Below, piece after piece: positions 52,611-58,711 of a stretch of 64,000 nucleotides of DNA. The position numbers and the translations under genes were made by a program. The stretch's first letter is position 1. Each line of letters starts with the position of its first letter. The notes under the pieces were generated by a model. It was not told where the DNA came from, made no database searches, and saw only the letters and a program-made list of their open reading frames with translations. Origin of the DNA: Candidatus Xenobia bacterium (GTDB taxonomy: Bacteria; Vulcanimicrobiota; CADAWZ01); NCBI GenBank assembly GCA_031551355.1, contig JAVBNT010000001.1, positions 64,477-128,476 on the forward strand, given 5' to 3'.

Positions 52611-53279
52611 ATGGAAGTAACTTGTCCTAACTGCGAAATGTCTTTTTCCGAAAACAGTATGGAATCACGGTTTGGGCTGCTTGTCTGCAGTAATTGCGAT
52701 CACCGTTTTAAACCGAAGCTTAGCGGCAATACATCATTGCCCTCAATTTATACTGTTGCCAATGAAGGCTCGGATTTGGTGATACGGAAGAAATGGTATA
52801 GGAAAATTTGGGTTTTAGCCTTTTCTGCCAATTTTGCGGCGTGGTTTTTATTTCTTTTGTGTATCTCTTTTATTCCGCATAAAAGAGAAGACGGTGAGTT
52901 TGTGCTGATTATTATTATGGGATTAATCTGTTTCATTATGGCCTATCTTGTTATTTTGTATCTTTTTGGTGTTACAGAAATAAGAGCCGGAAGAACAGGT
53001 ATTGACGTAACTTATGCAGCTCCTTTTCCGGTACCGTTTCTAAAAAATATTTCATTGCCGCTAAATTCTTTGGAACAAATATTCTGTCATCAGAAACTAT
53101 CAACCGCTAACAGAGGGAAACAAGCCATAACTTATGATATAAGTGCCGTTCTTAAGAGTGGAGATACTGCAAAGATTGACAATGTGGAAACATGGGAAGA
53201 AGGTAAAGCTGTAGAGGCCATACTTGAAAAACATCTTGGAATTGAAGATGTAGCTGTAGAGGTTGGGTATGGTATATAA
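52611..53279 (+). CDS. Array paralog A1: N-terminal 4-Cys zinc ribbon, two TM helices, conserved C-terminal cytoplasmic domain. Unrecognised family.
   Basis: CPNCEMSF...CSNCDHRFKP, two hydrophobic helices, C-terminal AVEAILEKHLGIEDVAV. Own RBS. Confidence 0.6.
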   Translation: MEVTCPNCEMSFSENSMESRFGLLVCSNCDHRFKPKLSGNTSLPSIYTVANEGSDLVIRKKWYRKIWVLAFSANFAAWFLFLLCISFIPHKREDGEFVLIIIMGLICFIMAYLVILYLFGVTEIRAGRTGIDVTYAAPFPVPFLKNISLPLNSLEQIFCHQKLSTANRGKQAITYDISAVLKSGDTAKIDNVETWEEGKAVEAILEKHLGIEDVAVEVGYGI

Positions 53280-53322
53280 CCGGCCGTGTTTTAAGGAGTA
53301 ATTAGAATTTGGAGGGGTTGTG

Positions 53323-54009
53323 ATGGAAGTAACTTGTCCTAACTGCGAAATGTCTTTTGCCGAAAACAGTATGGAATCACGGTTTGGGCTGCTTGTCTGC
53401 AGTAATTGTGATCACCGTTTTAAACCGAAACTTAGCGGCAATACATCATTGCCCTCAATTTATACTGTTGCCAATGAAGGCTCGGATCTGGTGATACGGA
53501 AGAAATGGTACCGAAAAGAAAACATTATTGTAACCGGTTTTATGACATTCATGGCCTCTGTTTTTATGATTTTGGGAGGGGGATTGCTTTTTAGTTCCGG
53601 GCATGATTTTGTAACAAAATTGGCGGTACTTCCTTTTTTCGTCTGTTTTATTGTTCCCGGCTATTCCCTGATTCTTTCTCTTTACAGTATAACGGAAATC
53701 AGGGCCGGAACTTTTGGTGTTGTTGTAACTTATAAGACTCCTCTGCCGGTTCCGTTTTTGAAAAAAATCTCCTTGCCGCTGTCATCTATTCAACAGATAT
53801 ACTGTGAACAGAAAATAACGTACAGCGGTTCCCGCAGGGGAGTGCGCAAAACCACATTTAACTATAATATCAATGCTGTTTTGAAAAACGGGGCAACTGC
53901 AAAGATTGACAATGTGGAAACGGCGGAAGAAGGCAGAGCTGTTGAAGGTATGATCGAAAAACATCTTGGAATTTGGGATGAGGCTGTTCCTCAGGAATTT
54001 AACTGGTGA
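53323..54009 (+). CDS. Array paralog A2. First ~63 codons nearly identical to A1 at the nucleotide level.
   Basis: Same architecture. NxTEIR after TM2, TYKTPLPVPF, C-terminal EGMIEKHLGIWDEAV. SD GGAGGGG. Confidence 0.6.
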   Translation: MEVTCPNCEMSFAENSMESRFGLLVCSNCDHRFKPKLSGNTSLPSIYTVANEGSDLVIRKKWYRKENIIVTGFMTFMASVFMILGGGLLFSSGHDFVTKLAVLPFFVCFIVPGYSLILSLYSITEIRAGTFGVVVTYKTPLPVPFLKKISLPLSSIQQIYCEQKITYSGSRRGVRKTTFNYNINAVLKNGATAKIDNVETAEEGRAVEGMIEKHLGIWDEAVPQEFNW

Positions 54010-54078
54010 TGTGAAATAGAGAGATTATCTTCTCAATTAAGCAGTTTTGTTTCGTATGAGCAATGGAGGTCCCAAAGG

Positions 54079-54801
54079 ATGGATATAACTTGTTCCCGGT
54101 GTGGCAGAGTTTCTAAAGAGAGAGAGCTTTTGGTAAAATTTGGACTTGCATTTTGTCCGGCCTGCAACCGTAAGACGGTGTATGAGGCTGAACCTGTTTT
54201 TTCATGTCTGTCTTCTAATTACTCGGTATCTGTTGACGGAGAAGCTCTTGTAATCAAAAGAAGCTGGCGCGATCCTGTTTCCCTGATTTGGACTGTTTTT
54301 CTTTTGTTTTTGCCGGTAATTACGTTTTTATTTATATTATATTCCAATAAATCAGGAGATCTGGAACTTTGCAAAAATATTGTTTGCAATACGGTAAGTA
54401 ATTTTATCAGTAATATTGTCAACGGGAAGGATGCTGCAAGTATTTTAATTGCATCCCTGATATCCATTTTGGTTTTGTTATTGATTGGCGGTATTTTGGG
54501 TAATTTGCTGAATACGACGGAGATGCGTGTTGACGGTAGGCAGATTGCTTTTAGAACATATCCGTTGTTTTTCCTGTCTTCGAATACGCTTGTAGATTGC
54601 CACTTCATAGAGAAAATTTTCTGTGAGAAGGCAGAATACTTAAGCAGGGGGGGAACTCACATATCCTTCAGACTTATTGCCAAATTGAAGGATGGTAAAT
54701 CTGTTTTGCTTGCCACTTTTAGTGAAGAGTGTCATGCCGATGCTTATAAAGCGTTTATAGAAAAACGTCTTGGTCTGTATGACGGGCCTGCTGATTTTTA
54801 A
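54079..54801 (+). CDS. Array paralog A3.
   Basis: CSRCGRV...CPACNRK zinc ribbon, 2 TM, NTTEMRVDGR, C-terminal AYKAFIEKRLGLYD. Confidence 0.6.
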   Translation: MDITCSRCGRVSKERELLVKFGLAFCPACNRKTVYEAEPVFSCLSSNYSVSVDGEALVIKRSWRDPVSLIWTVFLLFLPVITFLFILYSNKSGDLELCKNIVCNTVSNFISNIVNGKDAASILIASLISILVLLLIGGILGNLLNTTEMRVDGRQIAFRTYPLFFLSSNTLVDCHFIEKIFCEKAEYLSRGGTHISFRLIAKLKDGKSVLLATFSEECHADAYKAFIEKRLGLYDGPADF

Positions 54802-57045: not shown

Positions 57046-57294
57046 GTAAGCGTCAAACCAAAGACACATTGAATAGCTATGCGAATTCTCCTAAAATTGG
57101 ATAGTAAGTGGGTTTGGCATTTCTGTTGCTTTTCGACAAAACTTCTACACGTGTGCCATCAGCTTTCCGGCTCTGCAACGAACCTCGATGTTGCTGCGTC
57201 GAAAATCTGATAGCGCACTGACAATGTATGGCTTGTGACTGATTGCAACGTTATATTTATTGGGAGTCATTTGAGGATTAGGGAGTGGATGTTT

Positions 57295-58014
57295 ATGGCT
57301 GATACGTTTTTAAATAATTATGCAGGCAATTCTGATGCAATTATTTGTCCGGAATGCAAAAGCTTGTTTGATGAAAGTCAGGTAAATGTTAAATACGGTT
57401 TGGTGCAATGCGTTCATTGCCAAAAAAAGTTTAAGCCCAAATTAAAGGTTTCACAATTGCCGGCAAATTATAAGTTCGTCAACGAAGGCAGTGAATTGTT
57501 GATTAAAAGACGCTGGTTTGAAAAAATTAGTGATTTGTTCTTTCCGGGTTTATTTGCCTTTGCTTTTGGCATTTCTACGGCTTTTATTTTGTTTGCAGTT
57601 TTAAAGGAGGGAATAAAGGAGTCGGCCGTATTCTTGTTTTTACTTGTTCCTTTTGCCTTTGTTGCTTATATCTCAAGCCGTGCTTTACTGGAGACTGTTT
57701 TAAATACGACTGAGATCAGAGTGACTAAAGACTCTTTGTCTGTTGCCGTTTATCCTCTTGCCGCAGAAAATCGTCAAAAATCAATATCTGTTTCTATGAT
57801 AGAGCAGATTTTTTGCAAGGAGATTGTCAGGGGGTATAAATCAGTCAGCGGCTGTAAGCTTTTGGCATTGCTTACTGACGGCAGTGAGATTGAGATTGAA
57901 GTTCTTGATAATTTATCCGAGGCACGTGCCTTGGAGATTTTGCTTGAAAAACACCTTGAAATAGAGGATAATTTTGTTGCCGGTGAATCTTTTAATTCTG
58001 TTGTGGTTAATTAA
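57295..58014 (+). CDS. Array paralog A7. Start reassigned to the second ATG, 9 nt after the GGGAG SD.
   Basis: CPECKSLF...CVHCQKKFKP, 2 TM, NTTEIRVTKDSLSVAVYPL, C-terminal ARALEILLEKHLEIED. Confidence 0.55.
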   Translation: MADTFLNNYAGNSDAIICPECKSLFDESQVNVKYGLVQCVHCQKKFKPKLKVSQLPANYKFVNEGSELLIKRRWFEKISDLFFPGLFAFAFGISTAFILFAVLKEGIKESAVFLFLLVPFAFVAYISSRALLETVLNTTEIRVTKDSLSVAVYPLAAENRQKSISVSMIEQIFCKEIVRGYKSVSGCKLLALLTDGSEIEIEVLDNLSEARALEILLEKHLEIEDNFVAGESFNSVVVN

Positions 58015-58045
58015 GTTCGAAGTAATATTTTAGGAGGAATAAACT

Positions 58046-58711
58046 TTGGAATTTAGATGCAGGGAATGTCATTACTGCTTTACGCCGCGTGCCGAAGATT
58101 TTAGCGATGATATTATAAAATGTCCGCGATGTGCCGACAAATTAAAACCGCCTAAGCTTATGGAAGTGGAATTGTCGTCTGCCTATAAAGCCGGAATTCA
58201 GGGACAGGATCTTGTGGTTACCAAGCGTTGGTTCAACTGGTTGAGTGTTATTTTGTCGGGTATTTTTAATTTAATTTGGGTTCCCGGTTCCATTCTGGCC
58301 TTTATAGGCTCAATAAGCAGCGGTGGCGGCTGCGTTACTCCGTTAACAGTCCTGCCGTTTGTTTTGACATCCTTCTTTCTTGTCTATCATTTTTTTGCCT
58401 TGCTTTTTAATATAACGGAAACACGTGTGAACAATGACAGTATTGTTATTCGCTGCTATCCGCTGCCGTGTTTTAGAACAAGAGTTATTGCCGCTGATGA
58501 TATTGAGCAAATTTACTGCGAGCAAAAAATTGATAATGATCCGGAGAGCGGCCGTAATATAAGATATGAACTAAAGGCCGTTTTAAACAGCGGCATGAAA
58601 ATATTCATCGATTCGTTTGCAGAACTTGCCGAAGCGAGGGCAATGGAAATTTTTATCGAGAAACGTCTTGGCATAAAAGATAGAGAGGTTGACGGTGAAT
58701 GCCTGTGTTAA
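58046..58711 (+). CDS. Array paralog A8. TTG start 8 nt after AGGAGG.
   Basis: CRECHYCF...CPRCADKLKPP, 2 TM, NITETRVNNDSIVIRCYPLP, C-terminal ARAMEIFIEKRLGIKD. Confidence 0.55.
   Translation: MEFRCRECHYCFTPRAEDFSDDIIKCPRCADKLKPPKLMEVELSSAYKAGIQGQDLVVTKRWFNWLSVILSGIFNLIWVPGSILAFIGSISSGGGCVTPLTVLPFVLTSFFLVYHFFALLFNITETRVNNDSIVIRCYPLPCFRTRVIAADDIEQIYCEQKIDNDPESGRNIRYELKAVLNSGMKIFIDSFAELAEARAMEIFIEKRLGIKDREVDGECLC

Follow-up and report, generated by a model that had tools for sequence, protein, structure and literature searches.

A tandem array of eight zinc-ribbon membrane proteins with a predicted split PH domain in a Candidatus Xenobia bacterium

Here, we describe a tandem array of eight paralogous genes (A1 to A8) at positions 52611-58711, on the forward (+) strand, of a 64-kb stretch of contig JAVBNT010000001.1 from a Candidatus Xenobia bacterium; this whole stretch is called the window below, and positions refer to it. 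The eight genes are intact open reading frames (ORFs) lying head to tail, and each encodes an N-terminal zinc ribbon, two transmembrane (TM) helices and a C-terminal domain that is predicted to be PH-like. The proteins belong to a large bacterial family with thousands of members that lacks a curated model or a name, and no published description of it was found in the library searched. An initial annotation, made from the sequence alone, had recognized eight intact same-strand paralogs of 221-240 amino acids (aa), a description borne out by the ORFs, the deposited proteins and the profile E-values.

Layout and divergence of the array

Gene starts were set to match deposited predicted proteins, to which A1-A8 each correspond exactly, every one as a singleton cluster. 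A1 (52611-53279) encodes 222 aa, in which a zinc ribbon, a beta-hairpin, a TM hairpin and a putative PH-like C-terminal domain follow one another, and matches the family profile at E = 3.7e-81. The ORF of A2 (53323-54009) opens with GTG at 53320, the deposited protein (P0003) has 228 aa, and its closest paralog is A1, with 64-67% identity. A3 (54079-54801; 240 aa; profile E = 3.6e-78) has the longest membrane segment of all copies, at 83 residues. A4 (54857-55540; 227 aa), the copy used for the structure model, forms a subgroup with A5 (55596-56294; 232 aa; profile E = 1.1e-93), which is 54% identical to it, and A6 (56344-57045; 233 aa), whose ORF opens at 56272. A7 (57295-58014; 239 aa; profile E = 1.5e-75) lies in an ORF that opens at 57235 and carries a 13-residue N-terminal extension ahead of the ribbon, and A8 (58046-58711; 221 aa; profile E = 1.3e-81) uses a TTG start. 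As first annotated, every gene has its own ribosome-binding site, a GGAG-type sequence 5-10 nucleotides (nt) before the start in 8/8 copies. The intergenic gaps from A1 to A8 measure 43, 69, 55, 55, 49, 249 and 31 nt, so that the spacing of 30-60 nt originally given does not hold between A6 and A7. No additional family copies were found elsewhere in the window.

The eight proteins are clearly paralogous, with profile E-values of 1e-75 to 1e-94 and pairwise identities of 30-67%. They align over their full length, and the invariant positions are the four ribbon cysteines, T-E-x-R after the second TM helix (TM2), a proline, an I..C motif and several residues of the C-terminal helix. Two motifs of the initial annotation needed adjustment: the ribbon reads CxxC-x17-CxxC in seven of the eight copies, with a spacing of x16 in A5, and the N-x-T-E-(T/I)-R motif following TM2 is invariant in its T-E-x-R part, the leading residue being Asn in most copies, Gly in A1 and Ser in A2. 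Each of the eight copies has two strongly hydrophobic segments, flanked on the cytoplasmic side by stretches rich in Lys and Arg, in agreement with the earlier placement of both soluble parts on the same side of the membrane, and the extracytoplasmic loop is just a few residues long in most copies. Among the array paralogs the TM hairpin is 17-20% identical and varies in length from 59 to 83 residues, whereas the ribbon, the hairpin strands, the PH strands and the C-terminal helix are 36-49% identical; the description of a conserved scaffold with a variable middle therefore stands.

For every copy, BLAST ranks other array members above the 150 top-scoring relatives among 1.84 billion cluster representatives, and the array is thus a local, lineage-specific expansion. 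This expansion is old enough for most pairs to have dropped to about 30% identity. A1 and A2 share a 5' tract of 201 nt (52605-52805 and 53317-53517, both +) that is 96% identical and includes a few bases before the start, as found by repeat search and alignment. Synonymous divergence (dS) between these two genes is 0.11 in codons 1-63 and 1.2-2.4 downstream, and the confinement of low dS to the 5' ends points to recent gene conversion, making A1-A2 a mosaic. In the most similar pairs, the soluble parts have a ratio of nonsynonymous to synonymous divergence (dN/dS) of 0.2-0.3, which marks the copies as genes under purifying selection rather than pseudogenes.

In an independent assembly from this organism (Logan SRR23967709, a contig of 35,856 bp), the sequence ends inside the array just upstream of A7, a break that fits with repeats hampering assembly.

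The protein family and its predicted fold

In Pfam and NCBIfam, none of the eight copies scores above the cut-off of a model, the only matches being sub-threshold ones to MJ0042-type zinc ribbons. Beyond the ribbon, the protein body is covered by no Pfam, NCBIfam, PADLOC or PHROGs model, and the same is true of distant family members and of all 91 members of a broad family alignment, each scanned at E <= 10. The view that the proteins match no recognized family was therefore upheld, and no existing Pfam family accounts for all eight. The N-terminal CxxC-x16/17-CxxC segment recurrently matches the MJ0042-type ribbon models (TIGR02098; Pfam Zn_ribbon_4/5): PF13717 is the precomputed domain of A4, and Zn_ribbon_4 is matched by 74/91 members (E <= 10), with most individual scores below the curated cut-off. 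The four ribbon cysteines are invariant in the 91-member alignment as in the array, but this ribbon is a generic accessory module and is missing from a sizeable fraction of family members.

Word-indexed homolog searches, with either the array or the 91-member alignment as query, returned nearly only self matches. An exhaustive HMMER profile search retrieved 3,020 cluster representatives at E <= 1e-3 and 1,312 at E <= 1e-10, the majority of them full-length proteins of 220-250 aa. Ribbon-less members of 162-195 aa also exist, and they mark the split-PH/TM unit as the core of the family. Among the 150 best matches, 27 are fused two-unit proteins of 380-540 aa. These fused proteins (P0009, P0010, P0011, P0022, P0031 and others) contain two or more complete units, with a ribbon on each or on the first only. 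Together with the tandem genes, the fused doubles suggest that units act together, a 'Rosetta stone' hint of pairing. The most conserved positions of the family's main branch (95-100%) include a Trp in TM1 and, where TM2 ends, a Gly, a Tyr and an Asn, which fits a hairpin with a function of its own better than one that serves as an anchor only.

A pattern scan of species-representative genomes gave 92 relatives in Gemmatimonadota (Longimicrobium), Planctomycetota, Myxococcota, Chloroflexota, Bacteroidota, Elusimicrobia, Acidobacteriota and Proteobacteria, and the cultured myxobacterial hosts include Hyalangium versicolor, Archangium gephyra, Pyxidicoccus fallax and Myxococcus. Arrays recur in other genomes only to a limited extent: of about 90 loci, 73 hold a single copy, about ten a pair and two have three copies, with no conserved flanks, and the eight copies described here are the most seen. 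The array's own subfamily has no locus in the species-representative genomes, which do not include the source genome, or in the metagenomes searched. Copy number differs at a syntenic site flanked by a polysaccharide deacetylase gene and ribBA, with one copy in locus L002 (8001-8711) and three tandem copies in locus L007 (859-2984). Toxin-antitoxin genes (ParE/Phd, HicB-like) adjoin the family genes in both, and the site looks like a variable spot. A ribbon-less relative, which has no annotation in the PLSDB table, is found in locus L094 (4001-4534; NZ_CP045339.1 1372318-1372851) on the 1.72-Mb replicon of Vibrio sp. THAF190c, and is 35% identical to a main-branch member over residues 76-248 of the latter.

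The structure of A4 was modelled with AlphaFold2 using the 91-sequence alignment, and the model is confident (pLDDT 93.2, pTM 0.78). It consists of the zinc ribbon (residues 1-33), a conserved beta-hairpin (48-62), TM helix 1 (66-92), TM helix 2 (98-127), six strands (129-197) and a C-terminal helix (200-214). The two TM helices are linked by about 5 residues, and the beta-hairpin ahead of TM1 forms part of the same sandwich as the strands that follow TM2. The highest-probability Foldseek matches of the model are PTB, PH and GRAM domains, and the further non-helical matches are likewise PH-superfamily folds (the CCM2 PTB domain, the middle domains of Pob3 and SSRP1, and FERM). In the model, the topology is that of a protein with both termini in the cytoplasm, a minimal outer loop and a split PH fold. 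The EROS type is defined by a PH domain into which a TM hairpin of two helices is inserted, the hairpin being followed by six strands and a C-terminal helix, and we regard an EROS/Ycf4-like split PH domain as well supported and highly probable for these proteins. Neither this fold nor the wide spread of the family had been noticed in the initial annotation.

Comparison with EROS and Ycf4 and proposed function

EROS (also CYBC1; PF15169; PDB 8KEI chain D) is a eukaryotic chaperone of NOX2 and P2X7, and Ycf4 (PF02392) is a photosystem I (PSI) assembly factor of cyanobacteria and plastids. Both are regarded as tied to NADPH-linked oxidoreductases in eukaryotes and phototrophs. To our knowledge, they are the sole characterized members of a hairpin-interrupted PH design that chaperones a specific multi-pass redox complex. 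In the EROS structure, the PH domain is interrupted by helices H1 and H2, and six strands, the two longest joined by a short loop, lead from H2 to the C-terminal helix; the helices contact TM2 and TM6 of NOX2, and the PH domain contacts its cytosolic dehydrogenase domain (PMC11161758). The link between EROS and Ycf4 was made by iterative sequence searching (PMC5379978). Ycf4 is restricted to oxygenic phototrophs and forms oligomeric scaffolds that hold newly made PSI cores (PMC11449065).

The bacterial proteins resemble EROS in their short N-terminal beta-hairpin, in two TM helices with a very short outer loop, and in the six strands and C-terminal helix that complete a cytoplasmic PH-like sandwich. 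They differ from it by adding the N-terminal zinc ribbon and a conserved acidic C-terminal tail, by lacking the short helix H3, and by occurring as tandem arrays and fused doubles in hosts without NOX2. With Ycf4 they share the order of elements (two TM helices, six strands, C-terminal helix), as far as a low-confidence Ycf4 model allows, and Ycf4 is also of prokaryotic origin and makes oligomeric assembly scaffolds (PMC11449065). However, Ycf4 has no zinc ribbon, and the genomes in which the bacterial family was found belong to phyla that are not oxygenic phototrophs (Gemmatimonadota, Planctomycetota, Myxococcota, Chloroflexota and others).

For sequence comparison, 105 Ycf4 genes were collected from metagenomes with the degenerate pattern F-x-P-Q-G-x-x-M-x-F-Y-G, and 69 non-redundant sequences from plants, algae and cyanobacteria were kept; these diverse sequences replaced an angiosperm-only Ycf4 profile that was too shallow and gave nothing against the family. 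Over the full length, hhalign aligned the family with the 69 Ycf4 sequences at P = 0.0016 (score 28.3) over 109 columns in local mode and 159 in relaxed mode; reversed controls gave P = 0.010-0.017 over 24-27 columns, and the single EROS sequence against Ycf4 gave P = 0.028 over 73 columns. With the soluble domain after TM2, the family matched Ycf4 at P = 0.013 over 42 columns, the reversed controls at P = 0.28-0.52 over 1-10 columns, and EROS at P = 0.0058 over 71 columns.

The full-length alignment of the family with Ycf4 is collinear through the strand before TM1, TM1, TM2, the strands and the C-terminal helix, and its register pairs the Tyr at the end of TM2, the Pro-rich turn, and a Glu and a Leu of the helix. 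The paired Glu in Ycf4 is the invariant second Glu of an E-x-E motif (67/69 sequences), and its partner is a near-invariant Glu of the family. In A4, the residues opposite E-x-E are E207 and E211. In the 198-aa algal Ycf4 sequences, the two Glu of E-x-E occupy positions 179 and 181, which would equal the Chlamydomonas numbering of E179/181. The E179/181Q change in Chlamydomonas Ycf4 blocks PSI assembly (PMC11449065). The count of coincident conserved positions between the family and Ycf4 was just mildly above that of the reversed controls and was not used as evidence. At the sequence level, the resemblance to Ycf4 is weak yet specific, its register is the expected one, and its strength is similar to that of the accepted link between EROS and Ycf4, while it falls well short of proof. 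True homology of the family to Ycf4 and EROS is plausible, and we lean slightly towards it.

On this basis we tentatively read the array as a locally expanded set of split-PH membrane chaperones or scaffolds, a bacterial variant of the EROS/Ycf4 type in which the hairpin is diverging fastest here, although we place this reading somewhat below an even chance. Each copy is predicted to be an inner-membrane protein with both ends in the cytoplasm, in which the MJ0042-type ribbon is followed by the PH-like sandwich; two strands of the sandwich lie before the TM hairpin, and the other six and the C-terminal helix after it. By analogy with EROS and Ycf4, the hairpin might dock on the transmembrane helices of a partner membrane protein, and the PH-like domain, the Glu-rich C-terminal helix and tail, and the ribbon where present might keep hold of cytoplasmic portions of the partner or bring in an additional factor. 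The outcome would be a stabilized or scaffolded assembly of membrane proteins, with the eight copies acting as client-specific variants or as subunits of a hetero-oligomer. Divergence concentrated in the hairpin would suit copies with different membrane partners as well as the subunits of one hetero-oligomeric scaffold. The chaperone or scaffold function itself, which is drawn from analogy, is possible but held with more reserve. That the whole family is a widespread bacterial branch of Ycf4/EROS made up of client-specific assembly chaperones, with the eight copies as a panel for different clients or as one hetero-oligomeric scaffold, is doubtful.

Several observations weigh against the chaperone reading. 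PF02392 was matched by none of the eight paralogs (E <= 1), ten distant members (E <= 0.01) or 91 alignment members (E <= 10), and PF15169 by none of the 91 members (E <= 10), with EROS itself matching PF15169 at 9e-86. The comparison of the family with the single EROS sequence was not significant (hhalign P = 0.059-0.091), and the hhalign probability for the family against Ycf4 was just 16%. Foldseek listed no PDB match at E <= 1e-3 and did not list EROS, and the quality of the Ycf4 model made for calibration was too low for this purpose (pLDDT 58). The hosts lack NOX2 and are not phototrophic, and neither a conserved neighbour nor a candidate client gene was found near family genes. TM segments diverge fast in general, and the variability of the hairpin need not mean different partners.

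If the EROS/Ycf4-type reading is correct, the split-PH design would be an ancient and generally used way of assembling membrane proteins, not confined to the photosystem and NOX2, and EROS-type chaperones would originate in bacteria well outside photosynthesis. The family would then offer a tractable bacterial system for the mechanism and would annotate a sizeable part of the bacterial 'dark' proteome that lacks a Pfam or NCBIfam model, and the array, with its fresh gene conversion and fast-diverging hairpin, would be a natural experiment in the evolution of specificity.

The best surviving alternative, which we nevertheless consider unlikely, is a membrane-anchored adaptor in which the ribbon and the PH-like domain recruit a soluble partner (a protein, a lipid head-group or a nucleic acid), the hairpin is a mere anchor, and the paralogs differ in their partners. 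The conservation of the ribbon in most members (Zn_ribbon_4 in 74/91), the better conservation of the soluble parts than of the hairpin, and the use of PH-like folds as typical interaction modules would all be expected of an adaptor, and the conserved acidic C-terminal tail (LGI.D..V.GE) resembles a docking motif. However, many members wholly lack the ribbon, TM positions that are 95-100% conserved in the main branch argue that the hairpin does more than anchor the protein, and no partner gene is conserved nearby.

A further alternative, less probable again, takes the proteins as units of two TM helices and a PH domain like those of YdbS/YdbT and DdE/DdF, which would oligomerize in the membrane to export or protect against membrane-active peptides, with the array providing a set of specificities. 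YdbS consists of two TM helices and one bPH domain, YdbT of three such units fused and encoded beside YdbS, and DdE and DdF are needed for the export of a leaderless bacteriocin (PMC8657885). The parallel with the bacterial family is a two-TM hairpin with a cytoplasmic PH-like domain as a repeating unit in single, fused and adjacent genes; the varying copy number at the syntenic L002/L007 site beside toxin-antitoxin genes and the variability of the TM hairpin would also suit this alternative. Against it, no bPH model (bPH_2, PF03703) is among the 25 most recurrent Pfam matches of the 91 members (E <= 10) or in the tables for individual members, and no bacteriocin, ABC transporter or toxin genes recur beside family genes or occur in the window. 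The PHb2 domains of YdbS/YdbT and DdE/DdF are located after the TM helices (PMC8657885) and are unsplit, whereas the PH-like domain of the family is split by the hairpin, with two strands before TM1.

The initial annotation had also pointed to a degenerate-GGDEF/EAL gene on the opposite strand immediately downstream, and its presence was verified: a convergent dCache-GGDEF-EAL gene (58737-61007, -) has a GGDEF motif that reads NADNF and an intact EAL motif, which make its product a probable c-di-GMP phosphodiesterase. It is very improbable that the array works with this protein as a transmembrane signalling or anti-sigma-like module. Besides the adjacency, an N-terminal zinc-binding domain followed by TM helices is superficially like zinc-binding anti-sigma factors, and an ECF-type sigma gene lies near one family locus (L004). 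However, when the 129 genes directly beside family members in named genomes were surveyed, each Pfam family turned up three times at most, and there was no recurrence of sigma factors, GGDEF/EAL proteins, toxins, transporters or defence domains. The position of the GGDEF/EAL gene beside the array is therefore best taken as a local coincidence, and no sigma gene adjoins the array in the window. Anti-sigma zinc-finger models are absent from the recurrent Pfam matches of the 91 members, and proteins with both soluble parts in the cytoplasm and an outer loop of a few residues in most copies offer no obvious sensor. They also have no output domain.

Least probable of all is an array of anti-phage defence or abortive-infection membrane effectors: genes of a type I restriction system are located some 10 kb upstream, toxin-antitoxin genes flank a family locus in two other genomes and tandem diversification is common in defence loci, but PADLOC gave one of the eight copies at E = 0.13 and nothing else, PHROGs matches and a single viral-contig match cover the zinc ribbon only, the neighbours are mostly housekeeping genes with no recurrent defence domains, and a dN/dS of 0.2-0.3 is ordinary purifying selection. 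The immunity, receptor, anti-sigma, defence or signalling roles first suggested for the array were thus not sustained, given the lack of PADLOC support, viral relatives and recurrent neighbours, and an outer loop of a few residues is poor receptor material. A phage origin of the array was also considered and rejected, as viral contigs yield no relatives of the family body.

Surroundings of the array

The region upstream of A1 (52287-52610, +) is AT-rich and 324 nt long, and contains the array's candidate promoter at 52437-52465 (TTGATT-17-TATAAT with a TG extension), which is the best promoter-like site of a consensus scan that was overall not above shuffle expectation. The A6-A7 spacer (57046-57294, +; 249 nt) holds a weak promoter-like site at 57069-57097. 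A decayed ninth copy was considered for this spacer and rejected, as no family remnant is present there. A riboswitch or other RNA element was looked for, and no Rfam element was found in the array, the spacers or the upstream region; no Rfam family reaches the gathering threshold anywhere in the window, and no RNA genes were found in it.

Directly upstream of this region lies the polytopic membrane ORF mentioned in the initial annotation (51690-52286, +), a putative gene with a TTG start that encodes 198 aa; it has no Pfam family match, and its exact sequence is not in the protein collection. A small polytopic membrane partner for the family was considered on account of this ORF and gene 4 of locus L007, and was rejected: such genes are not enriched beside family genes (6/158 adjacent, 23/616 in the background), and the two polytopic proteins are unrelated. 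In BLAST clustering of neighbours, at most 6 of about 85 loci share any neighbour, and this sharing reflects myxobacterial synteny.

The flanks of the array are ordinary chromosomal genes: upstream a formate dehydrogenase-like/NuoF/NuoE module, DUF4416 and an N-acetyltransferase, and downstream, with the dCache-GGDEF-EAL gene, SpoU and TsaD. The window contains fermentative or anaerobic redox genes and no photosystem genes. An operon-like block at 44457-50880 (-) encodes a 1194-aa fusion (2Fe-2S, GltD-like pyridine-nucleotide oxidoreductase and molybdopterin oxidoreductase), NuoF-like and NuoE-like proteins and DUF4416, and suggests a soluble NAD(P)H-linked formate dehydrogenase or bifurcating module and an anaerobic lifestyle. 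All housekeeping proteins that were checked are singletons at 90% identity in a collection of 15 billion proteins; the source lineage is poorly sampled.

Further upstream, at 39126-42937 (+), a gene for HsdR (1034 aa), the R subunit of a type I restriction system, precedes one for a YgjP-like metallopeptidase, and the ORFs at 34746-39094 are probably the M and S subunits of this system. Near the start of the window, at 394-4696 (+), trkA is followed by two tandem trkH paralogs of 488 aa each.

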